Below are positions 21,309-36,368 of a stretch of DNA of 64,000 nucleotides, in pieces. The stretch's first letter is position 1; every line of letters starts with the position of its first letter. Source of the DNA: Eubacteriales bacterium (GTDB lineage: Bacteria > Bacillota > Clostridia > Oscillospirales > CAG-272); the NCBI GenBank assembly GCA_045637205.1, contig JAZTYY010000082.1:8822-72821 (forward strand). Direction: 5' to 3'. The notes beneath the pieces were generated by a model, which worked only from the letters and a program-made list of their open reading frames with translations, was not told where the DNA came from and searched no databases. A program made the position numbers and the translations under genes.

Positions 21309-21788
21309 ATGTTAAACGTTAAAATATACGTCACGGGAACACTCAAGGAACAATACTATAAAGACGCGATTGCCGAATATAAAAAGCGCCTTAACGCGTA
21401 TTGTAAGCTTGAAATAATTGAATATAAGGAGTATAAACTCCCCGATGAGCCATCTCAAAAGCAAATTGAACAGGCGCTTATATCCGAGGGGCAAAAAATT
21501 CTTGCGGATATATCTCCAAGAGCATATAAAATTGCGATGTGCGTTGAGGGAAAACAGCTTTCAAGTGAGGAATTTGCTGAAAAGCTTGATTCAATTGCTT
21601 CTACACACGGGGAGGTAGCGCTCATTATAGGAAGCTCTTTTGGACTTTCAGAGGAGCTTAAGCGCGCGTGCGATTTTCGTATGTCGGTTTCAAAAATGAC
21701 GCTTACCCATCAAATGCTCCGCGTGTGGCTTGTGGAGATAATCTATAGATGCCTTAGCATTACACACGGCGGAAAATATCACAAATAA
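21309..21788 (+). CDS. rlmH: 23S rRNA (pseudouridine1915-N3)-methyltransferase
   Basis: 159 aa. It has the SPOUT fold with an RlmH-typical C-terminus: IGSSFGLSEE..SKMTLTHQMLRVWLVEIIYR. Confidence 0.9.
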   Translation: MLNVKIYVTGTLKEQYYKDAIAEYKKRLNAYCKLEIIEYKEYKLPDEPSQKQIEQALISEGQKILADISPRAYKIAMCVEGKQLSSEEFAEKLDSIASTHGEVALIIGSSFGLSEELKRACDFRMSVSKMTLTHQMLRVWLVEIIYRCLSITHGGKYHK

Positions 21789-21802
21789 GACGAGGAAATA
21801 TT

Positions 21803-22384
21803 ATGGTAATCGAAACAAAAAGACTTGTTTTAAGAGAATATAGACAAGAGGATTTTGAGGACCTGTGCTCTATAATTACCGATGCTGAAACAATGAAATA
21901 TTATGTTCGTCCATATGATGAGAGAGGAGTTCAGCGCTGGCTTGATTGGTGTATCGGAAGCTATAGGGATAACGGCTTTGGACTTTGGGCTATGGAGCTT
22001 AAGGAAAGCGGTGAATTCATTGGCGATTGTGGAATTTCCCTTCAAAAAATAGACGGTGAGATTTTGCCCGAAATTGGTTATCATATCAACAAAAAGCATT
22101 GGAGAAACGGATACGGTAAGGAAGCCGCCGCTGCCGTGCGCGATTGGTTGTTTAATAATACCGAATATGAGCGCGCGTATTCATATATGAATAAGGAGAA
22201 CGTGGCATCCTATTCCACTGCTGCCTCAATTGGAATGAAGAAGATTAAGGAATACAACGACGGTGAAGAGGATTTGTTTGTATATTCCATTTCACGAGAA
22301 GAATGGCAAATTTTGAAAAATAAGGAGAAGGCGATGAATACATTTGGATGCAATTTTCAGCAGAAAATCAACAAGAGCATATAA
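21803..22384 (+). CDS. GNAT-family N-acetyltransferase (RimJ/RimL-like)
   Basis: 193 aa. Motifs present are RLVLREYRQEDFEDL and HWRNGYGKEAAAAV (the acetyl-CoA binding motif A). Confidence 0.8.
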   Translation: MVIETKRLVLREYRQEDFEDLCSIITDAETMKYYVRPYDERGVQRWLDWCIGSYRDNGFGLWAMELKESGEFIGDCGISLQKIDGEILPEIGYHINKKHWRNGYGKEAAAAVRDWLFNNTEYERAYSYMNKENVASYSTAASIGMKKIKEYNDGEEDLFVYSISREEWQILKNKEKAMNTFGCNFQQKINKSI

Positions 22385-22859
22385 AAACGAGCAAATTTCA
22401 GAGGAGAGCTTGCAAACCATTTTGAAGGCAGGAGCTTCGGCGCCAATCGGAATGGGTAGATATGACACCTTGCATATGACTGTAATTCAAAACGATGAAT
22501 TGCTTGTCAAAATTTTTGATGAGGCTGAGGATGTTATGTTCAAGGCAACCGGCATGCGCAAAAATATGAACTTTGGTGCAAAGACTGTTGTACTTGTTTC
22601 TTCAATGCCTGCCTATAGAGAGGGAATTGATTATGCACATGCGGGATTTGTGATTGAGAATATGGTAATTGCCGCAACCTCACTTGGCATTGACAGTGTA
22701 GTTTTGGGTGGACCCATCTCCGCAATTACGGGCAGTGAGGAGATAATGCAAGCACTCAGCGTGCCAAATGGCTTTACACCCTTGCTTGCAGTTGCTTTTG
22801 GATACGGTGTTGAAGATGCACCTGCTAAAGAGCACACAATTACAGTAAATAGAGTGTAA
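22344..22859 (+). CDS. Nitroreductase-family protein
   Basis: 171 aa with an IFSRKSTRAYK N-terminal motif. It starts at a TTG and overlaps the upstream GNAT gene by 41 nt in a different frame. Confidence 0.75.
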   Translation: MDAIFSRKSTRAYKNEQISEESLQTILKAGASAPIGMGRYDTLHMTVIQNDELLVKIFDEAEDVMFKATGMRKNMNFGAKTVVLVSSMPAYREGIDYAHAGFVIENMVIAATSLGIDSVVLGGPISAITGSEEIMQALSVPNGFTPLLAVAFGYGVEDAPAKEHTITVNRV

Positions 22860-22885
22860 TTTTACGGTTATTATTATATAAGAAG

Positions 22886-22916
22886 AAAAGCCCAAACGGT
22901 TGCGTTTGGGCTTTTC
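22886..22916 (+). terminator. Rho-independent terminator
   Basis: GCCCAAACG-gttg-CGTTTGGGC is followed by TTTT. Confidence 0.85.
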
Positions 22917-23011
22917 ATCTAAATTTTGGAATTAAAAGTTAATATTTTAACGACATTATTCATCTTTTTGCACAAAAATTCGCTATATTATATTAATATT
23001 AGACAAAATCG

Positions 23012-23040
23012 TTGACATAATTGGCAAATGGTGGTATAAT
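23012..23040 (+). promoter_or_regulatory. Consensus sigma-A promoter of the TetR-SipW operon
   Basis: TTGACA (23012-23017), exactly 17 nt of spacer, then TGgTATAAT with TATAAT at 23035-23040. The region upstream is AT-rich. Confidence 0.8.
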
Positions 23041-23074
23041 ACTCATACTGTGACAATTAAGATTGAAGATTTAA

Positions 23075-23099
23075 CTCCACGTTGTGGAGCATATTTTTT
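23075..23099 (+). promoter_or_regulatory. Short hairpin plus U-tract in the operon leader (possible attenuator)
   Basis: CTCCAC-gtt-GTGGAG is followed by CATATTTTTT, about 30 nt downstream of the predicted transcription start. Confidence 0.35.
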
Positions 23100-23137
23100 C
23101 GGACGTTTGTAGTATTTGCTACAAGTTTATAGTATGC

Positions 23138-23167
23138 GTACAGTACAGTACAGTACAGTACAGTACA
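23138..23167 (+). repeat. Pentanucleotide tandem repeat (GTACA) x6 in the operon leader
   Basis: gtacagtacagtacagtacagtacagtaca is read directly. It lies between the promoter and the RBS of the TetR gene. Confidence 0.95.
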
Positions 23168-23206
23168 GCCGTATACAGAACTTATCTTTTGTTTAAGGAG
23201 GAAAAA

Positions 23207-23827
23207 ATGAAAAATGAACAAGAGATTCGAGAAGTTCTGATGAGTAATACTATAAGGCTTATTGCTGAGGGGGGCTTTGAAAAGGCAACCACAAAGGCAA
23301 TAACGCATAGTGGGGAATTACCATCCGATGTGAAAATGAATGAGGTGCACATTTACCGACTGTTTGGTAGCAAAGAGGGGCTTTACTCATTTGTGTTTGA
23401 TCACATTGACAGGGAGATATTCTTTGCTCTTAAAAGGTGCTTTGAGTCACACAAAAACGAAGAGTGTGACACAAAGGTAATGCTTAGCGGGGTCTTTAAT
23501 GACGCGTGGAGATATCTTTTAAGAAATGAGGGGCATTGTCGATGCTATATCCGATATTATCATTCGGTATATTTTAAGGACAAGTCCTTGAGTAATCATA
23601 ACGAACTTTTTGAAGGAATAATTACGGAATTCAGCCCACTGTTTAAAGAGGGCACGGATGTAAAATCCGTTATGCATAGCACGTTTACCACCGTGCTTGA
23701 CTTTGCCGTTAGAGTTTATAACGGTGACCTAAAAAATACTGAAACAAATGCTGAACACATATTCAACGTTGTTTATAGCATGATGTTTATGTATCTTAAA
23801 ACTGATAGTAATTTAAGAACTATATAA
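23207..23827 (+). CDS. TetR/AcrR-family transcriptional regulator
   Basis: The N-terminal HTH is VLMSNTIRLIAEGGFEKATTKAITHSG. I chose the ATG at 23207 (AAGGAGG RBS) over 23084, which would read through the repeat. Confidence 0.8.
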   Translation: MKNEQEIREVLMSNTIRLIAEGGFEKATTKAITHSGELPSDVKMNEVHIYRLFGSKEGLYSFVFDHIDREIFFALKRCFESHKNEECDTKVMLSGVFNDAWRYLLRNEGHCRCYIRYYHSVYFKDKSLSNHNELFEGIITEFSPLFKEGTDVKSVMHSTFTTVLDFAVRVYNGDLKNTETNAEHIFNVVYSMMFMYLKTDSNLRTI

Positions 23828-23846
23828 AAATTGAGAGGAAAAAATT

Positions 23847-24521
23847 ATGAAAACCAACAATTCAACAAGCAAGACACAAAAGGCCTTAACAATAATTGGT
23901 ATCTTATTGTGCGTAATACTCGTACCGATATTGATTATTAACTGTATTTTGATTGTTAAGAGCTTAGTTTACAAGGATGAAGTGCCAAGCATCGGTGGAA
24001 CAATGCCATTCATCGTATTGACTGACTCCATGTATCCTGACATTAAGAGTGGTGACATTATTATTTGTAAAGAGGTTGACCCGAAGGATATTGAGGTAGG
24101 AGACGTTATCTCCTTCTATGATCCCGAAGGAAACGGAACTTCAGTTGTAACCCATAAGGTTATTAAAATCATTGAAGATGAAGGCAAGCTTTATTTCGTT
24201 ACACAAGGTACTAACAATAATACTCAGGATAAGGCATCAGTTCCTGAAGATAAGGTAATTGCCGAATACACAGGCACAAGAATTCCTTATGCAGGTAATA
24301 TTGCACTCTTTATGCAAAGACCTGAAGGACTTATCATTTGCGTTGGTGTACCGATTGTACTTTTCGTGGGATATGATATGATTCGTCGCAAGAAGTACGA
24401 AAAGAAGAAGGGTGACGATATGGAAGCCCTTAAGGCAGAGCTTGAAGCGCTTAAGGCAGCAAATGCCACAAAGGAAACACCTGCTGAAGCTCCTGCAGAA
24501 GAACCCTCAGCTGAGGAATAA
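23847..24521 (+). CDS. Signal peptidase I, ER/archaeal (SipW-like, S26B) type, paralog 1
   Basis: 224 aa. There is an N-terminal TM, a Ser box LTDSMYPDIKSGD and a His box VVTHKVIKI. A C-terminal TM is followed by a charged tail, KKKGDDMEALKAELEALKAANATKETPAEAPAEEPSAEE. The conserved GDxN box reads GTNN. Confidence 0.8.
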   Translation: MKTNNSTSKTQKALTIIGILLCVILVPILIINCILIVKSLVYKDEVPSIGGTMPFIVLTDSMYPDIKSGDIIICKEVDPKDIEVGDVISFYDPEGNGTSVVTHKVIKIIEDEGKLYFVTQGTNNNTQDKASVPEDKVIAEYTGTRIPYAGNIALFMQRPEGLIICVGVPIVLFVGYDMIRRKKYEKKKGDDMEALKAELEALKAANATKETPAEAPAEEPSAEE

Positions 24522-24728
24522 TTAGTTAATTAAAGAATGGCAAATTCCATTCTATTAATTCAGATGTCCTTCCCTCGGAAGCCACGTCCGGGGATCGAAT
24601 ATAAATTGCCGCAATGGGGCTTTTTGAAGGAAAAAGTCCATTGAAAAGTCCCGACATTGCCGGGCAAGTTAACTTTCCCCGAACAAGGGAAGAATAAAAA
24701 AATTTCATATTGAAAGGAAAATTTTATT

Positions 24729-25385
24729 ATGAAGACAAACAAAATGATGAGAATCGCTTCCATTCTCTTGGTAGCAGTACTTCTTTCCATCTGTGTAATC
24801 AGTGGAACATTCGCAAAGTATACAACAAGTGTTAGCTCCGATGACTCTGCAAGAGTAGCTTACTGGGGATTCCAGAGAACAAACTCTATTGATATCACAG
24901 ATCTTTTTGATTCAGCTTATGATCTTGGCACAGGCGAAACAGTTAAGTCTGAAGATGGCGATGACGTAATCGCTCCCGGTACAACAGGTTCTGAAACTTT
25001 CGTATTCGCATATGATGAAACAAACGCACAGGCTCCCGAAGTAGCTTACACATTCACAGTATCTGTAGCTGGTAGTGAATGCGCTCAGTCCATCCAGGAC
25101 AACGCTAACATCCAGTGGAAGCTTGATAACGGCGCATGGGGAACATGGGAACAACTTTTGGATTCCATTAAGCTCCTCTCCGGTGAAGCTGATGGTTCTG
25201 TAGATTACATGCCTGGCCAGCTTCCTGCTGCTTTCACAACAGCTGATGACGAACACACAGTTTCTTGGCAGTGGCTTATCGGTGATTCCGATGCAGCAAA
25301 CGATGCTGACACAACTATGGGTAACGCAGGAACACTTGCTGAAGTTAAGCTCGTTATCACAATCACAGCAACTCAGATCGACTAA
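24729..25385 (+). CDS. SipW-substrate-type secreted protein; candidate major fibre subunit (TasA/BsaA/camelysin-like)
   Basis: 218 aa. The signal is MKTNKMMRIASILLVAVLLSICVISGTFAKYTTS, which resembles the GTxAyFtd SipW-cognate class. Further motifs are VIAPGTTGSETFVFAY and SWQW..D..MG..VKLVITITATQ. Codon choice resembles that of highly expressed genes, and a hairpin follows the gene. Confidence 0.65.
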   Translation: MKTNKMMRIASILLVAVLLSICVISGTFAKYTTSVSSDDSARVAYWGFQRTNSIDITDLFDSAYDLGTGETVKSEDGDDVIAPGTTGSETFVFAYDETNAQAPEVAYTFTVSVAGSECAQSIQDNANIQWKLDNGAWGTWEQLLDSIKLLSGEADGSVDYMPGQLPAAFTTADDEHTVSWQWLIGDSDAANDADTTMGNAGTLAEVKLVITITATQID

Positions 25386-25438
25386 TTTTTAAATCTTTTT
25401 AAGTTCATATTATATAAATTCTAGCTAATTAATTTTTA

Positions 25439-25481
25439 GCCCCCCGCCCCTTCGTGGCAGGGGTGGGGGCAAAGAATTTTT
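25439..25481 (+). terminator. GC-rich hairpin after the candidate major-subunit gene (probable partial or intra-operon terminator)
   Basis: GCCCCCCGCCCC-ttcgtggca-GGGGTGGGGGC forms 11 bp with one bulge and is followed by AAAGAATTTTT. Confidence 0.6.
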
Positions 25482-25493
25482 AACCCTTTATTG

Positions 25494-25513
25494 CACTTGA
25501 AATTGTTCAAGTG
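25494..25513 (+). promoter_or_regulatory. Perfect 8+4+8 palindrome (candidate operator) ahead of the distal gene block
   Basis: CACTTGAA-attg-TTCAAGTG sits 55 nt upstream of the ATG at 25568. Confidence 0.4.
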
Positions 25514-25567
25514 TGTTCAAGGTTTAACAATTTTTGTTAGCTTTTCACAGTAAAAAGGAGCAAATCC

Positions 25568-26746
25568 ATGTCTAAAAACTCAAACACAGACTTAAAAACA
25601 ATATTCAATAAAATATGGGCAAAGACGAAGGATATCTCCAAAAAGGCATTTAACGGCTTTTTGCATGCTAAGACATTCTGGACTGCCTTTGCGATTTTGG
25701 TTATTCTTTTTATCATAAGCATCGTTGTTCTTTCAATTCAACTTTATGATTTCGTAAAGATTGATGACCGTTCTGTTTCTCTTCGTTCATCTATGGATGA
25801 AAGCCTTAACGTTTTCGCCATGGAATATGAGAACGATAGGGGAGAAATTACCATTAAGGGACAAAACGGTGAAAAGGTGATTGCACCCGGCACAAATGTT
25901 GAGTATACTCTTCGTTTTAGAAACACCGATGACATTGCACTTGATTATACCTTTGTTCCTGAGGTTTCATATACCTCAGAGCATAAGCTTCCCATCTTGG
26001 TTCGTTTGCTTGATCCCAACGATAAGTATATAATAGGTAACGAAACCACTTGGGTTCCCATTGATGAGGTTGATGAAGTTGAGCATAGTGCAACGCTTTT
26101 AGAAAACGAAACTGCTGAATACGTGTTCCAATGGAAGTGGCCATATGAATCCGGTGACGACGAGCATGATTCCTTTTTGGGTTCAGCCGAAGCAGGTGAC
26201 GTTAGTATAAATCTTGCGCTTGCCATTCATGCAACACCAAACACTGATGCTAAGGCCAACGGTGGATTCTTTGCATCTCCCATCGGCAAGCTTGTCGTTC
26301 TTATCATCATCGTTATCCTTCTTGCAATTGCAATTACACTCTTGTTGATTCATATTATCAATAAGAGAAGAGAAAAGAGGGGAGAAGCTCCCATTATTAT
26401 TGAGGTTCCCGTTGTTACACCCGTTATTGAGACAATTTCCCGCGTGATTACACCAAAGGCGGCAAAATATACCGCACAGGGTAAGGTTCATTACGTTAAC
26501 CTTGACCAGCTTGGAGATTTCTTCCACTCAGGTGATAGGGTTACTATTGAAAATCTCAAGCAAAAGGGACTTATTCCTAAAAATGCAAAGAGAATGAAGA
26601 TTTTGGCAAGAGACTCTTACACTCTCGATAAGGCACTCATAATTGAAACTCAAGCAATATCCGCTAATGCTAAAAAGGCAGTAATTGAGGCGGGTGGACG
26701 CGTTGTCATTGTTGATCCCAATGCAAAGGGAGATAAAAAACAGTGA
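25568..26746 (+). CDS. Bitopic/type-I membrane paralog of the fibre subunits with a cytoplasmic uL15 C-terminal-like domain
   Basis: 392 aa. The N-terminus is K-rich, and TM1 spans aa 36-56. The ectodomain carries the VIAPGTNVEYTLRFRN and FQWKW..DD..LG..INLALAIHATP paralog motifs. TM2 spans aa 241-263 and is followed by NKRREKR. The C-terminal domain is described in the next feature. Confidence 0.7.
   Translation: MSKNSNTDLKTIFNKIWAKTKDISKKAFNGFLHAKTFWTAFAILVILFIISIVVLSIQLYDFVKIDDRSVSLRSSMDESLNVFAMEYENDRGEITIKGQNGEKVIAPGTNVEYTLRFRNTDDIALDYTFVPEVSYTSEHKLPILVRLLDPNDKYIIGNETTWVPIDEVDEVEHSATLLENETAEYVFQWKWPYESGDDEHDSFLGSAEAGDVSINLALAIHATPNTDAKANGGFFASPIGKLVVLIIIVILLAIAITLLLIHIINKRREKRGEAPIIIEVPVVTPVIETISRVITPKAAKYTAQGKVHYVNLDQLGDFFHSGDRVTIENLKQKGLIPKNAKRMKILARDSYTLDKALIIETQAISANAKKAVIEAGGRVVIVDPNAKGDKKQ
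26483..26713 (+). other. uL15 (RplO) C-terminal-like domain within the membrane protein
   Basis: KVHYVNLDQLGDFFHSGDRVTIENLKQKGLIPKNAKRMKILARDSYTLDKALIIETQAISANAKKAVIEAGGRVVIV follows the bacterial uL15 C-terminal pattern VNLD.L..(V)T.E.L...G.I....KIL....L.K.L.....S..AK.A.E.AGG, as I recall it from memory. Confidence 0.7.
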
Positions 26747-27303
26747 AAAAGAAAATAAAATTAACCATAAGAATTGCGTTAATCGTGCTCGTGGCAGTCA
26801 TTGTGGGCGTTAATATTTATACACTTAACGCCGCAAGACTCACGGGGGATAAGGTTCCTATGCCGTTTGGCATCGGCTCGGCAGTTGTATTGTCTGGAAG
26901 CATGGAGCCCGAGCTCAGTGTTGGTGATCTTTTAATCATCGTTGAAAAAAGCACCTATGAGGTCGATGACGTTATCGTATATCAAGATTCCGGAATGGCG
27001 ATTACACATCGCATTGTTTCCATTAACGAGGATGAGGTCATTACTCGCGGTGATGCGAACAATACAAATGATTCTCCAATTCGTCCAAAGCAAATTAAGG
27101 GTGAGGTTGTGTTATCCATTCCTTACTTTGGCTACGTAGTTGATGCAATTAAGTCACCAATTGGTACAATTTGTATAATTGGACTTGCAATTTTCCTCTT
27201 GGAGCGCTCATTCCACGTGGAAAAGAAGAATGATAAAAAAGAGCTTGACGATATTAAAGCTGAAATTGAAAAATTAAAGCAAGAGCAAAGCAAAAATTCC
27301 TAA
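26743..27303 (+). CDS. Signal peptidase I, ER/archaeal (SipW-like, S26B) type, paralog 2
   Basis: 186 aa. It starts at a GTG that overlaps the upstream stop (GTGA). The Ser box is LSGSMEPELSVGD, the His box is AITHRIVSI and the Asp box is TRGDANNTNDSP. A C-terminal TM is followed by the tail KKELDDIKAEIEKLKQEQSKNS. Confidence 0.85.
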   Translation: MKKKIKLTIRIALIVLVAVIVGVNIYTLNAARLTGDKVPMPFGIGSAVVLSGSMEPELSVGDLLIIVEKSTYEVDDVIVYQDSGMAITHRIVSINEDEVITRGDANNTNDSPIRPKQIKGEVVLSIPYFGYVVDAIKSPIGTICIIGLAIFLLERSFHVEKKNDKKELDDIKAEIEKLKQEQSKNS

Positions 27304-27327
27304 AACACAGAAATGGAGGTGTTTTTT

Positions 27328-27789
27328 ATGCAACAAAAATATAATAAAACACCCCTTGTATTCAAGATAGGAGTAGGAATTCTTTTCGCTCTCTTGCTTA
27401 CTGTTTATTGTTCAAACGGTCTTTATGCAAGATATTCTACCACGCTAGTTAATTCGAATAGTGCTCGCGTGGCAGTATTCTCGTTTGATGATAATTTAGA
27501 TGCACAGTCAAAAATTCTTCCCGCGGCATTAAGCCCGGGGGAAAGTGAAAGTGCCTCCATAACTATTAAAAATAATGGTGAGGTTGCCTTGGCTTATAGC
27601 ATTAAGATTGAAAATCTTACTAACAATCTCCCCATTGCCGATCAAATAATCACATCCGATGCAATAGCACCCGGAACCGAAACCACGTTCAACTGGGCAC
27701 TTGAGTGGCCGGAAGAAGAAAATTCCATTGATTATATGGGAAAAATGGACGTGTTTAAGGTTACTGTTATTGTTGAACAGGTTGATTGA
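27328..27789 (+). CDS. Small SipW-substrate-type secreted protein (minor fibre subunit candidate)
   Basis: 153 aa from the ATG at 27328 (GGAGG RBS). The signal ends in SNGLYARYSTT. Further motifs are ALSPGESESASITIKNNG and FNWALEWP..D.MG..FKVTVIVEQ. Confidence 0.65.
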   Translation: MQQKYNKTPLVFKIGVGILFALLLTVYCSNGLYARYSTTLVNSNSARVAVFSFDDNLDAQSKILPAALSPGESESASITIKNNGEVALAYSIKIENLTNNLPIADQIITSDAIAPGTETTFNWALEWPEEENSIDYMGKMDVFKVTVIVEQVD

Positions 27790-27812
27790 TTTCGTTTGCG
27801 GAAAGGAATAAT

Positions 27813-28631
27813 ATGAAAAAAATACATATTTCAAAAAGGTTTTGGATTGGCGCCGGAATTGTGATTTTTTTGCTATCGGTTGTGCTGACAAGCAGTGTTC
27901 TTGCAAGATACGTCAAAACCTATGAGCCACAGGACGATTCAGTCACTGCAAAGGCATTTTATTTTGAAAGTAATTATCTTACTGAAGATAATCACGAGTA
28001 TAAGCTTAACCCGGGAACAACAAGCGTTGATTTTAAGCTTTCAAATTATGAAACTGAGGCGCGTGTTTCTGAGGTGGATTCAATATATACTATAACGGTG
28101 ACGTCAACTGACACATCGTTTACAATTGATGGTGAAGTTGTTACACAAAAAACACTTTTGGCCAATAAAAATGAAAAGACCGATAAGACTGTAACACTAG
28201 GTAATCTTAAGGATGGATACGGATATTCGGTAACTGTAACAGCCAACGGCGGTTACACAAAAACATTGTCAGCAACGTTTAGCGTTGTAAGTACAAAAAA
28301 CGGATTTTTCATGAACGTTAATAGCTTTAATGATAAGTTCGTAATTTTGACGGTTTGGACTGAGAACGTTTCAGGGGACGTGACTATTGAGGTTCCCGCA
28401 GGCTTAGTTCCTGACACAACCGAGCCACTTTTGGCAAATATCCAAAACTGCGTAAATGGTGAATACCAAGAATTTACGTTTAGTGATACTGAGCATTTCG
28501 ATGAAATATTCATGTCCTACAAATATAGATTCTTCAAGACTGAAGATTACGATCCCAATCAGGAATTTGTAGTAACAATGAATGGAAGAACTGCTGAGAT
28601 TAAATCAAATTTATCAAAAGGAGGGCAATAA
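27813..28631 (+). CDS. SipW-substrate-type secreted protein (272 aa, divergent paralog)
   Basis: I chose the ATG at 27813 (AAGGAA RBS). The signal ends in SSVLARYVKTY, and a LNPGTTSVDFKLSN motif is present. The C-terminal half has no obvious paralog. Confidence 0.6.
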   Translation: MKKIHISKRFWIGAGIVIFLLSVVLTSSVLARYVKTYEPQDDSVTAKAFYFESNYLTEDNHEYKLNPGTTSVDFKLSNYETEARVSEVDSIYTITVTSTDTSFTIDGEVVTQKTLLANKNEKTDKTVTLGNLKDGYGYSVTVTANGGYTKTLSATFSVVSTKNGFFMNVNSFNDKFVILTVWTENVSGDVTIEVPAGLVPDTTEPLLANIQNCVNGEYQEFTFSDTEHFDEIFMSYKYRFFKTEDYDPNQEFVVTMNGRTAEIKSNLSKGGQ

Positions 28632-28634
28632 TTA

Positions 28635-31600
28635 GTGAATGTTTCAAAAACAACAGATAAACGTCGATTGCTTTTGGGCTTAATCGGTATAGTATCTGTG
28701 ATGATTGTACTCATTTTTGCTTGTTGCTTTCCTGTTTTAGCTGCGAATACTGACGAAGATCACGTACAAATTGGTGATCAAGCTTATATTATTACTGATG
28801 CTAAATCTCTTGTAGATGCCGACTTGGCATTGCTTAGATGGAGATCAAAGGGTGATACTACAAGTGTTTCTGCTGTGATTGATGGCGAAAGCTTTTCGGG
28901 CTTTGATGCGGTTTATGCCAAAGTTTATGATAAACTTCTTGCGTTGTTCGATGATAAAAGTGATAGTTCGGTAGTATATTACGACATAGCTGCTGATAAT
29001 ACACCGTCATCTGACGGCTATATAGCAAACACGTTACCTACAGGTGAGACTAAAAACTCTACTGTTATTTGGAAAGTAACCGGTGAAGTTACTCTTAAAG
29101 CCGGCAAGCCGATTTCTAACGTTGGTAGAGTAATTATTATATCTGAGGATGCAGCAACAATAAAGATGACTGCTGAAGCTTCTCAATTTTTGGTGAAGGG
29201 AACTGCGTCTTTTGTTATTCAAGGAAGAAGTGTTAATCAAAATATAAAGGTTACTTCAACAAGTTCAACTAAGACCAAAAATTCATTTCAGGTAGATGGT
29301 GGAAGCTTATATTTACAGTATTGTGACCTTGATGGATTCAAATATTCAAGCACATCAGTTTCAGTAATTTGTTTCCCGACAGGCAACTATGCTAGATATT
29401 TGTATATGTCAGATTCAAAGCTGCGTAACATTAATGCCAGAGAAGCTCCCGGTATCTTTTGTAAGGCGTATAGTACAGGTAGTTCAAACGATAAAGTAAT
29501 CCAATCAAAATTGTACATCAACTATTCGGAATTTTCCAATTGTGTAACAAACAGTGGTGCTTCGGATACAGTCGGTGGGTCTGCTATTAGATCATACGCG
29601 GCTGACGTGTGTGATTTGACTGTAAGAAACTGTACATTTACAAGCAATCGTGTAGGTAGTAAAACTGCTGCTCAAACCGGTGTAGCTACCGGTGGTGGAG
29701 CAATTTATTGGAAATCCGTGGGTGGTAAGGCTACTTTGATTTCCTGTACTTTTAAAAATAACCATAGCTCAGTTGTAGGAGGAGCAATCCTTAACATGGG
29801 AACTATGGAGATTATAGGCTGTAATTTTGAAAATAATACAGCATTCCAAAGTGGTGGAGCAATTGCCGTTGAAACACCATATACTTCAAGTGAATATACA
29901 AGTATTACAGGTTCTACAAGTGAAAACAAGCAGAATAATTTGAGTGGTACTTTGACACTTGACTCCAATACAAAAATTATTGGAAATACGGCAAATCAGA
30001 TTGGTGGAGGCATTTATTTTAATGCGGTATCCAGCCAAATCAGTAGTAAATATCAAATAACAAAATATCAAATGCAGTTGATTATTAACGGTGCTGAAAT
30101 TACAGGCAACACCTCCGGCACAAACGGTGGTGGTGTAGGTATCTATATGAACTATGACGACCGTGAATATAAGACCGGTGTTATTATCAATGAGGGAAGC
30201 TTGATTGCTAATAACGTTGCTGCTCAAAACGGCGGTGCGATTTGGATAAATAGTGCTGAAGCGTGTGATTGTAAGGAAAATCAAGGTGTTGTCATGAATG
30301 GTGGTACACTTGAAAATAACCTGGCAATCAACGGTGGAGCAATCTATATTGACACTGGTAAAAACGGTGTTGAAATGAACTATTTTATAAACAGTGGTAA
30401 CGTATATAGAAATAGTGCAACATCAAATGGTGGTGCAGCCTATATTCAAGGCGGTAACGTTATTATGTCGGGTGGTATCATTGCAGATTGTACCGCGAAT
30501 GTAAACGGTGGTGCAGTATACGTTTCAGGTGGTGACGCTACCATATCAGGTGGTGAAATCAGTGACTGTGAGGCAGCTGAAGATGGAGGCGCATTCTATA
30601 TGACCGCCGGTTCAGTTACCTTGTCGGGAAATGCTGTTCTTAGTAGATGTACTGCAAAGAACGGCGGCGTAGTTTATATGGGTGGTGGTACCCTTAATAT
30701 GAATGGTGGTACACTTTCATCCAATACTGCTATCAATGGAGCAGGTGCTTATCTTGCAAACGGTACCATGACTATCTCAGGTGGTACAGTTATTGATAAC
30801 ATTGCATCACAAAACGGTGGTGCGGCTTACCTCGGTGGTGGTAATATGAACGTTACTGACGGCACTATTTCAACAAACGTTGCCGTAAATGGTGCGGGTG
30901 CATACCTTGCAAGTGGTACTTTGTCAGTTTCAGGTGGTAACATTATTAGCAATAATGGATCTCAAAATGGTGGTGGTGCATACCTTGCAGGTGGTACTAT
31001 GATATTCTCTGGTGGTACTGTTTCAACAAACATGGCAGTAAACGGAGCAGGAGCATACCTTGCAGGTGGTACAATGACCGTTTCGGGTGGTAATCTTACT
31101 TCAAACGTTGCATCTATGGATGGCGGTGGTGCTTATCTTGCAGGTGGATCGTTTACAATTACAAACGGTACAATTACGGGCAACACAGCGGTTAACGGTG
31201 CAGGCGCACTTGTTGCAAACGGTAACGTAAACGTTAGTGGTGGCTCGATTACACAAAACGTTGCCGCACAAAACGGTGGCGCGTTCTCAATCACTAATGG
31301 TAACTATACAATGATTGGTGGCTCAGTTACCCATAATATAGCAACCAACGGTGATGGTGGTGCAATTTATATTTCATCAACCCAGGATAATACAAATATT
31401 ATTATTCGCTCAGGCACGATTATTGATAACCAAGCGGGCAATAGTGGTGGTGCATTGGGTGTTTACGGTCAGGATGGAGTTAAATTTACCATTACAATTG
31501 GTTCAAATACAAATCATAAGGATAGAGATAATTGCCACGTTTGTGTGGATAATGCAAGTATAGACGAATCTTGTCCCGTTATTAAAAACAACTCCTCCGT

Positions 31601-34600
31601 CACAAGCGGTGGCGGTATATATCTTTCAGGTTCATATGATGCGGTAATGAATATGCACTGCCTTGTTGAAGAGAATAATACTGTTGGTGACGGTATTTCT
31701 AATAGTAACTTCATGAAGGTAGAGGGTGGTACACTCAATATCAATACTGAAGGTGCTAACAAGGAAGAAGACTGCGGTAACGTAGTTATTAATTCATCAA
31801 TTCACGTAACAGGCGGTAAGGTAACACTTCATGGAAGTGGCTCAAACCCGATGTTTAAGGAGCCTGTAACGGTTGATATTAATACTGAAGGCTCAAGCTT
31901 TACTGATGCTCGAGATGGCGGTAATGCAAGAACAATTCAGTACTTTGAAAACTTTGTAATCGGTGGCCAAATGTCAGGTCGATACGTTTTGATTGACTAC
32001 ATTAGCACTGATCCGCACATTGTTCGTGCAAATATGTATTCTAATACGGGTTATGAGGTTGACGGTTGGACTCTTATGACAACCGACGCAAATGGTAACC
32101 ACGTTTCAACTGGTAGAATATTTAAAGCGGGTGACGAGATTACTGACACAGGAAAGCTTATTTTCTATGCTAAATGGGTAGTTGTTGGTTACACGGTAAT
32201 ATTCGATCCGGGTGTGGATAGCTATAGGGGATCAATGGATCCTCAGGACTTTGCCTATAATGATAAAAAAGCACTTTTAGAAAATGCATTTATCAACGTG
32301 GGATATAAATTCTTGTATTGGGTGGATGCAAGTGATCCAACTAAGATCTATACTGACGGTCAGGTTGTTGAGGGCCTTTCACAAACTCACGGTTCAAAGA
32401 TTAATTTGATTGCCGTTTGGGAAATATGCACACATAACGATACGGAATATATACTTACCACAAGTGGAAGTATAGCTACTCGCCAATGTGAATGCTTAGG
32501 ATTTACCGAGATGGCATCTATTTCAGGTATCACTACTGTTTACGATGCTAATCCTCACGGAGTTAATGTAAACTATAATAGAGAGAGCTTGAATGGTCTT
32601 AACCCCGACGAGCTTTGGAGCTTTACCGTTCTTTATAATGGTACTTCAAACGGTGGAGAAACCTTGAGTGATTCCACCTTGGCACCGATCAATGCAGGCT
32701 CATATACTGCCGGCTTTGAGGTTGGTGAGGGTAAATCTATTTCCGTAAACATAATCATTAATAGAGCGAATAGAGAACAAGCTCCCAACTTGCCCGAGTA
32801 TACAACAGAGGTTGACAATAAGGGTACAAATAATCCTAATGATGATGTAAATATCATCAAAATTCAAACTCCAACGGACACAACGGGATATCCTCTTGAA
32901 TATCAGTTTTCTTGGTATGAGGGACAGTCACTTAAGCAAAGTAATTGGCAGTCCTGGAATGCTCAAAATCCTCCAACACAACAGTTGAAGGTAACTTACA
33001 CCAACTATTATGTTGACGTAAGATATGCTCAAACGGATAACTATAATGCATCAAGCATTGTTCGAGGAACGTCAGTTATCGTTTGGACGGGTAACGTAAC
33101 GTTTAAGTTTACTTCCGGACAAGGTCTTAGTCACTCACACGTAACATCCAATAATAAGGATGGTATTACAGTTACGTTGACTCCTTTGGAAGGATATTAT
33201 ATTTACAATATTGTCACCACAGTATCCGAAATTCCTGATTATACACTTCCTGTGATGGATGAAACCACAAAGACAAGTGATTCTTGGGTGATTTGGATTC
33301 ATAGTATTGCTGAAGCGCCCAAGGGAAGCGGAATTACAATTGAAATATTGTTTACAGGAGCTGAAAAAACAATCGACGTTGATTCTTCAACAGTTAAGGA
33401 CGAGGCATTTAATGATATTTCGTCAAGTGGGGAAGAAAACGTAACAATCAGCAGTGATTCTGCATTCACAGTTGCATTTAACGCAAGCAATTTCAAGCAT
33501 TACGTTAATCCTTCAATCACATTTAGCAGCGCAATTCCAAGTGGTAGTACTGTGATTATGATTGATAAATCTGATTATAGCTATTGGGGCTATACTGCAA
33601 CGGCCAACGTGACAAGCATACCCCTTACGGATTTTGTTAAGATGGGAACACAAAATGAAAAATTCTCAATTGACGGAAAGGAAGCGTATAACCTTCAGTT
33701 CGTTGTTGATTTTTCAAATTGTCAAAGTTATCCCACAGCAAACACTCTTGTTACATCTTTTGCTGCAACACCTGTTCAACCTTCGGGAATTACAACAGTA
33801 CCTGCAATGCCTTCATCTTCCGACGTGAAGAGTACAATTCAGTTTATGAGTACCCCCACTTTTAATATTGAAAGTGATGAAACAGCAACAGATTCAACGT
33901 CACATTCACTTGCTTATCAGTTTGCTGTGACGTCGGGAACTAACGTAGGCACTTCAAAATGGAACGATATAGGCGCTATGCTTCTTGTTGTTCCTGAGGA
34001 TGCATCAATTCTTCCCAAGGATGCAAGATTGCAGGTTAAGATTGGCGATTCAACTGAAATTTATCCTTTGATTAACGGTAAATTCACAGTTGCCCTGCCT
34101 TCTAATAACACGGGAGTTGCATCACTTACCTTGTTGTCAGATATGATGCCTAATGAAGATATATCCTTTATGTTTACCGTTCAGCTTTGCGCATCAGCAA
34201 CCAAGGTTCAAAACACTCCTAATGGAGAGGAGCTTAACGTTGCAGACATCACTATTAGCTATAGTGTGAAGAAGACTGATGATCCTGAAATTTTTGCACA
34301 AATCAATGGTGATCTTCCCAAGTATGAAAACGGAAATATAACTCCATTGTATTTTGCAGTATCGGTTGAAAATCTTCCTCAAAATTATACGGTAAGAGCA
34401 ATGCTATATAGCAAAAACGCTAACGGTGGATATACTTCCACAACTCAAACAATGAATTTACCCCTTGTGGATAATTCGTTTGAGGGGGTTATTGACCTTG
34501 TATCCTTTAAAGAGGAAATGAGCCAAGCTGTTGGAAGTCTTAGCCTTATGGTTAGCATTGAAATTGTTGACTTGAACGGCGCAGTTGTTGAGTCCGTTCC

Positions 34601-34634
34601 ATTGTATTTTATTTTGGTAGATGCAAGACAATAG
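28635..34634 (+). CDS. Giant secreted beta-helix adhesin-like protein (Pmp-type GGA(I/A)Y repeats plus Listeria-Bacteroides (Flg_new) repeats)
   Basis: 1999 aa, starting at a GTG 3 nt after the upstream stop. The N-terminal signal or anchor is LLLGLIGIVSVMIVLIFACCFPVLAAN. Aa ~300-1065 hold ~23-aa rungs such as NGGAAYL.GG.M.VSGGT...N. Aa ~1138-1263 hold two GY.(V/F).(G/Y)W...(Y/I)A.W repeats. The ~730-aa C-terminal region is uncharacterised, and I saw no LPXTG. Confidence 0.75.
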   Translation: MNVSKTTDKRRLLLGLIGIVSVMIVLIFACCFPVLAANTDEDHVQIGDQAYIITDAKSLVDADLALLRWRSKGDTTSVSAVIDGESFSGFDAVYAKVYDKLLALFDDKSDSSVVYYDIAADNTPSSDGYIANTLPTGETKNSTVIWKVTGEVTLKAGKPISNVGRVIIISEDAATIKMTAEASQFLVKGTASFVIQGRSVNQNIKVTSTSSTKTKNSFQVDGGSLYLQYCDLDGFKYSSTSVSVICFPTGNYARYLYMSDSKLRNINAREAPGIFCKAYSTGSSNDKVIQSKLYINYSEFSNCVTNSGASDTVGGSAIRSYAADVCDLTVRNCTFTSNRVGSKTAAQTGVATGGGAIYWKSVGGKATLISCTFKNNHSSVVGGAILNMGTMEIIGCNFENNTAFQSGGAIAVETPYTSSEYTSITGSTSENKQNNLSGTLTLDSNTKIIGNTANQIGGGIYFNAVSSQISSKYQITKYQMQLIINGAEITGNTSGTNGGGVGIYMNYDDREYKTGVIINEGSLIANNVAAQNGGAIWINSAEACDCKENQGVVMNGGTLENNLAINGGAIYIDTGKNGVEMNYFINSGNVYRNSATSNGGAAYIQGGNVIMSGGIIADCTANVNGGAVYVSGGDATISGGEISDCEAAEDGGAFYMTAGSVTLSGNAVLSRCTAKNGGVVYMGGGTLNMNGGTLSSNTAINGAGAYLANGTMTISGGTVIDNIASQNGGAAYLGGGNMNVTDGTISTNVAVNGAGAYLASGTLSVSGGNIISNNGSQNGGGAYLAGGTMIFSGGTVSTNMAVNGAGAYLAGGTMTVSGGNLTSNVASMDGGGAYLAGGSFTITNGTITGNTAVNGAGALVANGNVNVSGGSITQNVAAQNGGAFSITNGNYTMIGGSVTHNIATNGDGGAIYISSTQDNTNIIIRSGTIIDNQAGNSGGALGVYGQDGVKFTITIGSNTNHKDRDNCHVCVDNASIDESCPVIKNNSSVTSGGGIYLSGSYDAVMNMHCLVEENNTVGDGISNSNFMKVEGGTLNINTEGANKEEDCGNVVINSSIHVTGGKVTLHGSGSNPMFKEPVTVDINTEGSSFTDARDGGNARTIQYFENFVIGGQMSGRYVLIDYISTDPHIVRANMYSNTGYEVDGWTLMTTDANGNHVSTGRIFKAGDEITDTGKLIFYAKWVVVGYTVIFDPGVDSYRGSMDPQDFAYNDKKALLENAFINVGYKFLYWVDASDPTKIYTDGQVVEGLSQTHGSKINLIAVWEICTHNDTEYILTTSGSIATRQCECLGFTEMASISGITTVYDANPHGVNVNYNRESLNGLNPDELWSFTVLYNGTSNGGETLSDSTLAPINAGSYTAGFEVGEGKSISVNIIINRANREQAPNLPEYTTEVDNKGTNNPNDDVNIIKIQTPTDTTGYPLEYQFSWYEGQSLKQSNWQSWNAQNPPTQQLKVTYTNYYVDVRYAQTDNYNASSIVRGTSVIVWTGNVTFKFTSGQGLSHSHVTSNNKDGITVTLTPLEGYYIYNIVTTVSEIPDYTLPVMDETTKTSDSWVIWIHSIAEAPKGSGITIEILFTGAEKTIDVDSSTVKDEAFNDISSSGEENVTISSDSAFTVAFNASNFKHYVNPSITFSSAIPSGSTVIMIDKSDYSYWGYTATANVTSIPLTDFVKMGTQNEKFSIDGKEAYNLQFVVDFSNCQSYPTANTLVTSFAATPVQPSGITTVPAMPSSSDVKSTIQFMSTPTFNIESDETATDSTSHSLAYQFAVTSGTNVGTSKWNDIGAMLLVVPEDASILPKDARLQVKIGDSTEIYPLINGKFTVALPSNNTGVASLTLLSDMMPNEDISFMFTVQLCASATKVQNTPNGEELNVADITISYSVKKTDDPEIFAQINGDLPKYENGNITPLYFAVSVENLPQNYTVRAMLYSKNANGGYTSTTQTMNLPLVDNSFEGVIDLVSFKEEMSQAVGSLSLMVSIEIVDLNGAVVESVPLYFILVDARQ

Positions 34635-34641
34635 TATAACT

Positions 34642-34678
34642 AAATGCCCATTCACCGAAAGGTGAATGGGCATTTTTA
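34642..34678 (+). terminator. Strong rho-independent terminator ending the operon
   Basis: AATGCCCATTCACC-gaaa-GGTGAATGGGCATT is followed by TTT. Confidence 0.9.
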
Positions 34679-34697
34679 TTTGAATTATATAAACTTA

Positions 34698-34726
34698 TTG
34701 CATTTTGCCATTAAAGGTGGTATAAT
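34698..34726 (+). promoter_or_regulatory. Sigma-A type promoter
   Basis: TTGCAT (34698-34703), 17-nt spacer, then TGgTATAAT with TATAAT at 34721-34726. Confidence 0.65.
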
Positions 34727-34840
34727 TACAATATATTATTATACCGACGATTTTAGTAACGCCTTGTGCGAAAAAAGAAAGCGTCTCGATGTGATTGTAG
34801 TTGGTGCATTTGACGAAATGAATAAATAGAGGTGAAAAAA

Positions 34841-35287
34841 ATGAAAATCATACATTATGAAGAACAATATAGGGATGACCTCATTTTTATGATTTTGCAA
34901 GCCAAGGACACGCTTGGGAGAAAGCCGAGTATAAATAAAGATTTATTGGATATAAAATCCAACTATTTTGACCGTGGAGATATGTTTTGGGTTGCGATTG
35001 ATGAAAATGACCGAGTAATCGGTAGTGTTGGCTATTCAAAAATTGAAAACACTAATGAGGCATTTGTGCATCGACTTTATGTGAAAGCATCTGAAAAGCA
35101 CAAGGGCATTGGCACAGCGCTGCTTGACGTTGCCGAAAACGAGATGATGAGGCAGGGAATAGTTGTGTCACTTGTGCATCTTGGAGAGCCCAAGGAACAG
35201 TGGTTTGAGTCATATTCGTTCTATCCCAAACATGGATATTGCGAATATGCGCCGAGATATATGAGAAAAAAATTAGAAAATAGGTGA
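34841..35287 (+). CDS. GNAT-family N-acetyltransferase
   Basis: The motif A region is LYVKASEKHKGIGTALLDVAE. I chose the ATG at 34841, 6 nt after a GAGGTG RBS. Confidence 0.8.
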   Translation: MKIIHYEEQYRDDLIFMILQAKDTLGRKPSINKDLLDIKSNYFDRGDMFWVAIDENDRVIGSVGYSKIENTNEAFVHRLYVKASEKHKGIGTALLDVAENEMMRQGIVVSLVHLGEPKEQWFESYSFYPKHGYCEYAPRYMRKKLENR

Positions 35288-35292
35288 AATAT

Positions 35293-35703
35293 ATGAAGAA
35301 AGTAAATAGATTTTTAGTTATGATTCTTGCATTTGCGTGTCCGTTTGCTTGTGCTGGTTGCTCAGATGCAGAAGAATCCACCCCCACTCCTATAAGCTAC
35401 GAGCAAATTAGTCAAAAGGAAGCAAAGACGCTTATGGATAGTGAAAGTGGATACGTTATTATTGATGCGAGAACACAGTCCGAATATGACGAGGGACATA
35501 TTCCCGGCGCCATACTCATTCCCGAATATGAAATCGCGAGCCGTGCCGAAAAGGAGCTTCCCGATAAGGATCAGTTGATACTTGTTTACTGCCGAAGCGG
35601 AAGAAGAAGCAAAATTGCGGCCGAGGAGCTCGTAAAGCTTGGATATACCAACGTCAAGGAATTTGGCGGCATCATCGATTGGGAGTATGAGATTGTTAAA
35701 TAA
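35293..35703 (+). CDS. Rhodanese-domain protein, probable lipoprotein
   Basis: The signal MKKVNRFLVMILAFACPFACAGCS has a Cys-containing lipobox-like end. The rhodanese active-site loop is YCRSGRRS. Confidence 0.8.
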   Translation: MKKVNRFLVMILAFACPFACAGCSDAEESTPTPISYEQISQKEAKTLMDSESGYVIIDARTQSEYDEGHIPGAILIPEYEIASRAEKELPDKDQLILVYCRSGRRSKIAAEELVKLGYTNVKEFGGIIDWEYEIVK

Positions 35704-35750
35704 CGTGCTTTGAATAAGTTAAATGTTTATGGCTGAGTTTTCATTAGATA

Positions 35751-35788
35751 AAAAAGAGGGTGAACGGTTACCGTTCACCCTCTAAAAA
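35751..35788 (-). terminator. Rho-independent terminator, best oriented for the SASP gene
   Basis: AGAGGGTGAACGG-tta-CCGTTCACCCTCT carries its U-tract on the minus strand. It may also slow plus-strand readthrough. Confidence 0.8.
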
Positions 35789-35856
35789 TTTATTCAATAA
35801 AATCAAACAAATTTTTTAACGCTTGCTAAACGGCAAGCTATACTCTCAAATCCCAA

Positions 35857-36060
35857 TTATCTGTTTGTGTTGGGGTTGTTTGCACCAAGAGAGTTTTCGT
35901 AGGACTCAACCATCTTCTTAACCATCTGACCGCCGATGGAACCTGCCTGACGGCTTGTGAGGTCACCATTGTAACCGTTGTTGTTAAGAGTTACACCTAC
36001 TTCGTTAGCTGCCTGCATCTTGAACTGTTCAAGTGCCTTTTTAGCTGACTTCTTTGCCAT
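35857..36060 (-). CDS. Alpha/beta-type small acid-soluble spore protein
   Basis: The sequence is MAKKSAKKALEQFKMQAANEVGVTLNNNGYNGDLTSRQAGSIGGQMVKKMVE, which is a SASP signature. I chose the ATG at 36060 (GGAG RBS) over 36072. Confidence 0.9.
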   Translation of the reverse strand: MAKKSAKKALEQFKMQAANEVGVTLNNNGYNGDLTSRQAGSIGGQMVKKMVESYENSLGANNPNTNR

Positions 36061-36245: not shown

Positions 36246-36310
36246 ATTGTTTGATAGTAAAACCATAAAACAGTAGCCATTCCATTAGTAGCAATGAATT
36301 GGATTTGTTA

Positions 36311-36340: not shown

Positions 36341-36368
36341 CATATTTTACTCAATTTTGCCTAGACAC

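Follow-up and report, generated by a model that had tools for sequence, protein, structure and literature searches.

Organization of the locus

The locus described here lies in a stretch of 64,000 nucleotides (hereafter the window, meaning the whole stretch at its full length) from a Eubacteriales bacterium of the clostridial order Oscillospirales (GenBank assembly GCA_045637205.1, contig JAZTYY010000082.1). It consists of a block of eight genes, all of them on the + strand, which encode a TetR-family regulator, two signal peptidases related to those of archaea and the endoplasmic reticulum (ER), four mutually homologous proteins designated A, B, C and D, and a giant secreted protein. The block is discussed below as the probable assembly locus of a cell-anchored, pilus-like fiber. 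According to the list of open reading frames (ORFs), all long ORFs between positions 23012 and 34675 are found on the + strand, and the intergenic gaps from tetR through the gene of the giant protein measure 19, 207, 182, −4, 9, −4 and 3 nt. An earlier note on this DNA had described eight genes on one strand, spaced by −4 to 207 nt between one promoter and a single strong terminator. This layout was confirmed, and the interpretation that the note drew from it found support in part. The genes, together with one RNA element and one domain of particular interest, are the following:

23207–23827, + strand: tetR, a TetR-family regulator of 206 amino acids (aa); ATG behind the ribosome-binding site AAGGAGG; Pfam TetR_N
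23847–24521, + strand: sipW1, an archaeal/ER-type signal peptidase I; 109.2 bits with TIGR02228
24729–25385, + strand: A, the putative major fiber subunit, 218 aa; predicted cleavage between GTFA and KYTT
25441–25469, + strand: RNA hairpin with an 11-bp GC stem and the loop UCGUGGC, followed by AAAGAAUUUUU; fold z-score −4.3
25568–26746, + strand: B, the membrane anchor paralog, 392 aa; A-like ectodomain and two transmembrane segments
26477–26707, + strand: homolog of the uL15 C-terminal domain within B (aa 304–380), predicted to be cytoplasmic; Pfam PF00828
26743–27303, + strand: sipW2, a second archaeal-type signal peptidase I, overlapping B by 4 nt; 87.4 bits with TIGR02228
27313–27789, + strand: C, a small putative minor subunit, 158 aa; predicted cleavage between GLYA and RYS
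27786–28631, + strand: D, a larger putative minor subunit, 281 aa, with a TTG start (possibly M10); predicted cleavage between VLA and RYV
28635–34634, + strand: the giant secreted protein, 1999 aa, with an ordinary signal peptide (predicted cut between VLA and AN) and PMP-type β-helix repeats

Four homologous proteins

The proteins A, B, C and D are truly homologous, and the paralogy that had been proposed from their shared motifs is thus borne out by three kinds of comparison. Pairwise BLAST among them gives E-values from 8e-7 to 6e-4 (B against A, 8e-7; D against A, 4e-4; D against C, 6e-4), and the four jackhmmer profiles built from A–D all match the same 132 ORFs among those of 80 related loci, which constitute the synteny sample used throughout. 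Moreover, hhalign aligns the A family with the C family over the full length at a probability of 99.3% (E 2e-20), a value that stays at 98.9% when the signal peptides are removed. In the 64-kb window, A, C and D are the only ORFs of 100 aa or more in which a hydrophobic segment is followed by the motif [AGS][KR][YF]. The publicly recorded protein identical to C begins at M6 and is thus 153 aa long.

Homologs of A number more than 1748; among the 120 matches listed, none carries a Pfam domain and both of the named ones are labelled 'hypothetical protein'. The invariant residues of A are G26–Y31, D39, A41–A44 and W46–F48, so that the stretch after the predicted cut, G26–F48, is mostly invariant, yet it overlaps the part of the AlphaFold2 (AF2) model with the lowest confidence (residues 25–41, below 50, in a model with an overall predicted local distance difference test score, or pLDDT, of 76). 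This combination of invariance and low model confidence is as would be expected of a donated strand. The C family is larger, comprising 3322 representative clusters (at 50% identity) at E ≤ 1e-3, and in its AF2 model (pLDDT 88.8) C folds as a β-sandwich of seven strands, for which only generic sandwich matches are retrieved. Pfam scans of the family members of A–D likewise return scattered weak matches to immunoglobulin (Ig)-like domains (DUF1616, FixG_C, WxLIP_PGBD, DUF7507 and CARDB). The core of C (residues ~59–128) also occurs in about 20 tandem copies in giant proteins from elsewhere (P0204, 3675 aa, and P0223, 3307 aa), and the same sandwich thus also serves as a stalk repeat.

Two archaeal-type signal peptidases

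The presence of two archaeal-type signal peptidases in one block, as first proposed, stood up to profile searches. Both SipW1 and SipW2 exceed the cut-off of 51.85 bits of the NCBIfam model TIGR02228 with the scores given above, and both miss the equivalog of Bacillus SipW, NF046067 (105.5 and 77.5 bits, respectively, for a cut-off of 190 bits); therefore, they are relatives and not orthologs of Bacillus SipW. The essential catalytic residues of this enzyme class, including the second Asp of the GDxNxxxD box, are established from studies of Sec11 and SipW. When 120 orthologs from the related loci were aligned (68 of the SipW1 type and 52 of the SipW2 type), the catalytic Ser (SM box), the His and this second Asp proved invariant. 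In the SipW1 of the window, Thr replaces the first Asp of the box and the second is retained. The two lineages are also told apart by their signatures around the catalytic Ser, which read L-T-D-S-M-Y-P, or L(T)(D)SM(Y)P, in SipW1 and L-S-G-S-M-E-P in SipW2. Since the catalytic residues are invariant in both lineages and the signatures are distinct, SipW1 and SipW2 are two old enzymes, each conserved separately and probably active, rather than the products of a recent duplication.

Each peptidase of the window has two predicted transmembrane segments, one N-terminal and one C-terminal, and the tail of SipW1 is charged and coiled-coil-like. In both peptidases, the C-terminus is a charged cytoplasmic tail of heptad-like sequence (ELEALKA and EIEKLKQ, encoded within 24440–24521 and 27240–27303, respectively), as is also the case in one of the related loci (L001). 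These tails could be a pairing or regulatory module, as has been proposed for the tail of SipW in B. subtilis.

The anchor protein B

The sequence of B marks it as the membrane or cell anchor of the system, in agreement with the role of membrane base that had been assigned to it. The first of its two transmembrane segments (aa 39–57) is an N-terminal signal-anchor, and the second (aa 243–261) is followed by a cytoplasmic tail. The signal-anchor lacks the A-[KR]-Y site of the other paralogs: where A has its predicted cut between Ala and KY, the orthologs of B show L-x-[DNK]-[YF] and a bulky −1 residue, and B is therefore likely to remain uncleaved. In 32 of 59 orthologs of B, the C-terminus consists of an LPXTG-like motif, P.T[GS][DGN], with a hydrophobic segment and a charged tail, in variants such as LPKTGD, PPQTGD, APSTGD and others; the Pfam LPXTG model PF00746 matches 8 of the 59. 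The B protein of the window has no LPXTG motif, its second transmembrane segment being preceded by ..NGGFFASPIGK and followed by the tail KRREKR, and no sortase motif was found in the 64-kb window.

Past the second transmembrane segment, B of the window carries the uL15-like domain, so that the initial description of B as a membrane paralog was correct but had missed both this domain and the second transmembrane segment. The match to PF00828, over residues 310–380 of B, reaches 48.9 bits (cut-off 21.5, E 8.7e-13), and the best match of the domain in the PDB is a uL15 chain (9qt5_L, E 1.8e-5). The equivalog for rplO, TIGR01071, is missed (41.1 bits for a cut-off of 77.95); thus, B is a membrane protein to which a homolog of the C-terminal domain of uL15 has been fused, and not the ribosomal protein itself. 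Apart from the window, 9 of about 57 orthologs of B carry the domain, and these form a subclade without the LPXTG motif and with a long cytoplasmic tail. A Pro/Glu-rich linker is found in the cytoplasmic tail of several of these uL15-type relatives, and a tetR gene is present in all five uL15-type loci whose upstream DNA is available.

The giant protein and its co-variation with D

The 1999-aa protein encoded at the end of the block had been called a β-helix adhesin. The β-helix is supported at the family level, whereas adhesion is a putative function. When the protein was scanned in pieces of 400 aa, Chlam_PMP, the model of the Chlamydia polymorphic membrane protein (PMP) repeat (PF02415, cut-off 20.6), gave 46.4 bits in five stretches of aa 301–700 and 25 bits in aa 1–400, repeats that a scan of the whole 1999-aa protein had missed. 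A Listeria–Bacteroides repeat (Flg_new) scores near its threshold at aa 1186–1245 (26.1 for 27 bits), and the gene contains 153-bp tandem repeats at 30735–31147, as detected by Tandem Repeats Finder (TRF). A phmmer search with the giant protein found no match. Its C-terminal part consists of Ig-like regions ending in ..VPLYFILVDARQ; the idea that this C-terminus is an A-like domain was rejected at the sequence level, given that the jackhmmer profiles of A–D miss the giant proteins.

Across the related loci, the distal genes occur as two types of module. In the type found in the window, a short C (~160 aa) is accompanied by D and by a giant protein ending in ..GSYRL...VPYYFIVQ (class 1), and in the second type a longer C (~210–240 aa) is accompanied, with no D, by a giant protein ending in ..WLNGNS (class 2). 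Among the 13 loci with both D and a giant protein, the latter was scored as class 1 in 9, to which 2 more can be added by eye, and D was found in none of the 7 loci with a class-2 giant protein. No other observation ties the giant protein to the system as well as this co-variation does, and D is regarded as its putative adaptor. In five other loci (L007, L029, L036, L072 and L081), the large last protein itself starts with a signal of the A-[KR]-Y type; in these loci, in contrast to the window, the peptidases may act on the adhesin directly.

A conserved RNA hairpin and other expression signals

The spacer between A and B folds far better than shuffled sequence (z = −4.3), and a strong hairpin is present 3' of A in 57 of 59 loci. 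Under a stricter definition, in which a loop containing GTGGC is closed by 9 bp or more within 350 nt after A, it is found in 50 of the 80 loci, mostly 13–75 nt past the stop codon of A, and the loop has the consensus YCGUGGC, with TCGTGGC as the most frequent form in the DNA. Applied to both strands of 1.07 Mb, the same definition yields only 3 minimal matches at other places, the opposite strand having none. The stems differ wholly between loci, and all 11 of their pairs show two-sided, compensatory changes with many U-G wobbles, which points to an RNA element rather than one of DNA. The aligned hairpins had been selected for pairing, so that the percentage of paired positions is biased, and it is the positional specificity that provides unbiased evidence. 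A covariance model gives a single match in the window (25438–25472, 36.2 bits) and also finds copies outside its training set, and no Rfam family matches the hairpin. The element is read as a partial terminator or 3' stabilizer through which the amount of major-subunit message would be set relative to that of the minor subunits, and its conserved loop implies recognition by some factor. The 207-nt spacer between sipW1 and A (24515–24735) is also strongly structured (z = −4.3), and in several related loci (L004, L048, L050 and L022) the hairpin model matches the minus strand weakly within this spacer or close to it.

The remaining expression signals of the block are the following:

23012–23040, + strand: putative sigma-70-type promoter, TTGACA-17-TATAAT with an extended −10 TG; 12 of 12 consensus positions
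23138–23168, + strand: perfect pentanucleotide repeat (GTACA)x6.2 in the 5' leader of tetR; TRF, 100% matches
34642–34675, + strand: hairpin of 15 pairs resembling an intrinsic terminator, followed by TTATTT; terminator scan

In a consensus scan of positions 21000–37000, the promoter is the sole site matching 12 of 12 positions, and the terminator is the only strong one on the + strand inside or at the end of the block, where the other internal + strand hairpins are weak. The tetR gene has been listed as an ORF from 23084, which is over-extended, the true start being the ATG at 23207 after AAGGAGG. The N-terminal helix-turn-helix of its product lies barely above the Pfam cut-off (PF00440 TetR_N, 24.4 for 24 bits), and no palindromic operator or inverted repeat for TetR was seen near the promoter. 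Moreover, tetR precedes sipW1 in only about 11 of the 80 related loci, so that it is an accessory to the cassette. The earlier note had placed the whole system under a TetR regulator, a point on which support fell short. The (GTACA) repeat was not found upstream of tetR in related loci and, therefore, phase variation was dropped as an explanation for it.

Conservation and distribution of the cassette

A survey of gene order established the block as a single operon-like cassette, as had been surmised, with the same order in dozens of genomes of Clostridia. The order sipW1–A–B–sipW2–C–(D)–giant recurs in species-level genomes in which the identity of A falls to about 33%. Relatives of A are encoded in 360 of approximately 185,000 species-representative genomes (one genome per species). 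The carriers are mostly metagenome-assembled genomes of uncultured gut and rumen Clostridia, including Oscillospiraceae, Lachnospiraceae, Faecousia and Christensenellaceae. However, one cultured carrier is at hand, Blautia sp. MSJ-19 (locus L025), which renders experiments on the system possible.

Proposed function and alternative explanations

The locus is proposed to build a multi-subunit, cell-anchored and pilus-like fiber that is processed by its own signal peptidases and bears the giant adhesin at its distal end, a reading to which a probability of roughly 0.6 is assigned. In this model, A, C and D would be exported by the Sec pathway and held in the membrane through their signal peptides, until either SipW1 or SipW2 cleaves the A-[K/R]-Y motif behind its Ala. 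The conserved N-terminal segment freed in this way (KYTT..D.ARVA.WGF in A) would be donated as a strand to a neighboring subunit and complete the sandwich of the latter, and A would polymerize by strand donation as occurs in TasA, in the Tat-fimbriae (tafi) and in chaperone–usher pili. In turn, B would keep its uncleavable signal-anchor beside a strand-like segment of its own and would be held at its C-terminus by the transmembrane segment and cytoplasmic domain in the window, or by LPXTG in most relatives; with an uncleaved signal-anchor at one end and a C-terminal anchor at the other, B could end the fiber and fix it at the cell. C and D would serve as adaptors, with D pairing specifically with the class of giant protein found in the window, and the giant protein would sit distally as an adhesin; the separation of only 3 nt between the genes of these two was counted in favor of the fiber. 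The hairpin may raise the ratio of major-subunit to downstream message via partial termination or 3' stabilization, with the loop read by a factor, and in the lineage of the window TetR may gate the promoter.

In this model, fiber formation, polymerization, the cleavage sites, the subunit order and co-transcription are all inferred, and a number of results weigh against it. The N-terminal strand of C is modelled as self-complemented, and the giant protein has no A-[KR]-Y motif, being tied to the fiber through synteny and co-variation alone. The hairpin, which had been termed an attenuator, is a real, GC-rich and conserved structure after A, but a U-run follows it in about half of the cases and roughly half have no clear U-tract, so that simple termination is not established. 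Further results of this kind concern the relation of A–D to TasA and camelysin. With the Pfam family of these proteins, PF12389 (Peptidase_M73, cut-off 22.5 bits), C of the window scores 13.3 bits (E 0.077), which is below the threshold, and A, B and D of the window show no match. The SipW-cognate signal model TIGR04088 (34 positions, cut-off 19 bits) matches none of the four N-termini at E ≤ 10, and HMM (hidden Markov model) searches in which the family profiles of A and C were run on PDB sequences returned nothing relevant.

The two curated models do match TasA itself, whose query sequence was checked to be identical to PDB 8aur: all 120 of the TasA homologs used as a control carry PF12389, and TasA reached 42.5 bits with TIGR04088 in the same run. 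The likening of the signal peptides to the SipW-cognate class, which the earlier note had implied, is not supported by this curated model. Among family members, weak M73 matches occur in 10 of 143 relatives of C (best, 3.7e-4), and the family is absent among the matches listed for the relatives of A, B and D, one of these scans covering the top 25 families. Profile comparisons with an alignment of 116 TasA-family sequences remain borderline. The C family aligns with it at a probability of 49.8% (E 1.7e-4), which becomes 26% (E 7e-4) over the PG[DE]..N.G strand when only the mature parts are compared, and the A family stays below 1%; the probability never exceeded 50%, whether single sequences or family profiles were used, with or without signal peptides, and under greedy alignment. 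The weak alignments are collinear with TasA from the signal peptide over the N-terminal strand to the PG[DE]xxxxFxxxNxG strand, and in the case of A they also pair the W.W strand with QMEIQF and the final ..ITITATQ strand with FSFEATQ. As for structure, a Foldseek search with the A model (pLDDT 76) places TasA first and second (5of1 and 5of2; E 4e-3, template-modeling score 0.26–0.29), with the archaeal bundling pilin 7ueg also among the matches, and a search with the C model leaves TasA outside the top 50. Membership of A–D in the TasA/camelysin family is thus not established, and the description of these proteins as TasA/BsaA-like could not be upheld as a statement of family. Since the curated models are missed and the similarity is borderline, the workings of the system would be TasA-like but its proteins form a separate family: the locus resembles the TasA, BsaA and tafi loci in logic, its subunits have no Pfam match, and A–D are probably a very distant branch of the donor-strand β-sandwich world.

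Three other explanations have to be set beside the fiber model. In one of them, which is rather unlikely, the locus is a surface-display cassette without polymerization. A–D would then be Ig-like monomers of the wall or membrane whose task is to escort or display the giant adhesin, and the two peptidases would simply process a set of unusual signal peptides. The complete and confident β-sandwich that C forms alone, with generic matches only, would fit such monomers, as would the many Ig-like Pfam domains matched by members of the C family, the tandem array of about 20 cores in giant proteins, and the fact that no TasA-family model is reached. However, the most invariant part of A is the N-terminal segment outside the folded core, and four ordered paralogs, one of them anchored, headed by a highly expressed-looking first member that is followed by a hairpin, make up the pattern of a heteropolymeric pilus. 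In addition, the TasA monomer is reported to crystallize in a self-complemented form as well (Diehl et al. 2018). The locus could also encode a released fiber of the TasA type, either for the biofilm matrix or associated with the spore, in which B would be a TapA-like nucleator only and the giant protein an independent matrix component like BsaC. TasA and BsaA are indeed matrix fibers encoded beside sipW, and a large secreted protein, BsaC, is encoded together with BsaA. The first name given to TasA was that of a spore-coat-associated protein, and the organism is probably a spore former according to the gene of an α/β-type small acid-soluble spore protein (SASP) at 35857–36072. Yet most orthologs of B carry sorting signals or a C-terminal transmembrane segment, which speaks for a permanent anchor, and the co-variation of D with the class of the giant protein points to physical coupling and not to independence, so that a released fiber appears quite improbable. 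Finally, a chance juxtaposition of unrelated genes, whose motifs would be accidents of composition with no functional unit behind them, could draw on the two gaps of more than 180 nt and on the presumed nature of co-transcription, but it is contradicted by the synteny survey, with an identical order in dozens of distantly related genomes, as well as by the 4-nt overlaps at two junctions, by the strong profile-level homology among A–D and by a hairpin that is nearly confined to the position after A; its likelihood is close to nil.

The fiber model can be extended to a more far-reaching joint reading, which is speculative and has the odds clearly against it. The locus would then represent an unrecognized class of Gram-positive pilus in which cleavage by the archaeal-type signal peptidase is itself the polymerization step, each cut freeing the donor strand of a membrane-held subunit, so that the fiber would grow from its base until the anchored, uncleavable paralog terminates growth. 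The YCGUGGC hairpin would be a protein-recognized RNA switch, and in the lineage of the window it might be read by the cytoplasmic, RNA-binding uL15-like domain of B, which would allow assembly to feed back on expression.

Comparison with known systems

One relative in logic is the tapA–sipW–tasA operon of B. subtilis, which produces TasA fibers by donor-strand assembly (PDB 5of1 and 8aur). Like this operon, the locus of the window encodes a dedicated archaeal-type signal peptidase beside a putative fiber subunit, its signal peptides end in the pattern small-x-aromatic-Ala before an aromatic-containing N-terminus, and an accessory paralog would anchor or nucleate the fiber; moreover, TasA is the best fold match of A. 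Unlike this operon, it contains two peptidases, four paralogs and a giant adhesin, misses PF12389 and TIGR04088, and would be anchored by LPXTG or a transmembrane segment and not in the mode of TapA. The sipW–bsaA–bsaB–bsaC operon of C. perfringens encodes two TasA-like paralogs and a large secreted protein and gives rise to membrane-anchored fibers (Obana 2020; Kivimaki et al. PMC11580942), and paralogs, LPXTG proteins and peptidases are often found in one operon in systems of the bsa type (PMC11580942). Both operons are clostridial and combine sipW with paralogs and a large secreted product, whereas the gene set and order are different, BsaC is a VWA protein and not a PMP β-helix, and bsa has neither a second peptidase nor a uL15 domain. 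BsaA also features an N-E-K isopeptide lock, and A–D are set beside it by description only.

In haloarchaea and Thermococcales, the tafi loci comprise a major subunit, an adapter, a two-domain tip, a terminator anchored by a transmembrane segment and a small regulator, together with a dedicated signal peptidase I needed for processing, and their products are predicted to form linear donor-strand heteropolymers (PMC11821415). This is the system closest to the locus of the window in logic, the two being likened by gene layout alone. Unlike the latter, tafi are archaeal, are exported by Tat or Sec, have DUF1102 subunits and employ a peptidase with four transmembrane segments, an extra Ig-like domain and a DUF5305 partner. 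In Bacillota, AbpX-like loci of the TasA superfamily combine a fibril subunit, minor or tip components, a dedicated signal peptidase I and regulators with LPXTG or SLH anchors that are predicted to join the fibril by strand complementation (bioRxiv 10.64898/2026.01.04.697558). As far as descriptions allow a comparison, they share with the window the phylum, the putative subunits, the anchor and the dedicated peptidase, but the AbpX peptidase has ten transmembrane helices in place of the two segments predicted in each peptidase of the window.

Sortase-assembled pili and the chaperone–usher pili encoded by pap and fim likewise have an adhesin at the tip, a major subunit in the shaft and an anchoring subunit at the base. 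In most relatives of the locus, B bears an LPXTG sorting signal as in sortase pili, and as in pap a stem-loop follows the gene of the major subunit. In papA, this stem-loop after the major pilin gene sets the stoichiometry of the subunits. Unlike in sortase pili, the window holds no sortase motif, and subunits would be joined by strand donation after cleavage and not by isopeptide transfer. Unlike in chaperone–usher pili, the locus encodes neither a chaperone nor an usher.

The general design of subunits, tip, anchor, dedicated signal peptidase and regulator has thus already been described elsewhere, and what sets this cassette apart is the subunit family without a Pfam match, the pair of peptidase paralogs, the giant protein with PMP repeats, the alternation between an LPXTG and a uL15-domain anchor, and the hairpin after A. 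A literature search found no paper on this cassette and, therefore, the statement of the earlier note that no described system has this gene set holds for the gene set itself, although the concept is known from TasA, bsa, tafi and AbpX. Three oddities call for attention, namely two conserved and distinct signal-peptidase paralogs within one operon, an anchor that switches between the sortase type and a cytoplasmic uL15-like domain, and a covarying RNA hairpin, conserved in its loop and without an Rfam family. If these genes do build fibers tipped with adhesins, they would constitute a major and unstudied means by which abundant commensals attach to their hosts, to food particles or to each other.

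Flanking genes

The window has a G+C content of 40%, and the block is embedded between unrelated housekeeping genes, which encode an MBL-fold protein, RlmH, a GNAT protein and a nitroreductase upstream, and a GNAT protein, a rhodanese-like lipoprotein and the SASP downstream. The SASP gene is located on the − strand, and its presence makes the organism a probable spore former. Just downstream of the operon, a BspA-like secreted protein of 3086 aa (36459–45719, + strand) is composed of dozens of leucine-rich repeats of the form SIGxxAFxxCxxLxSIxIP. It has a promoter-like site of its own (36369–36397, matching the consensus at 11 of 12 positions) and represents a second giant surface protein in this region.

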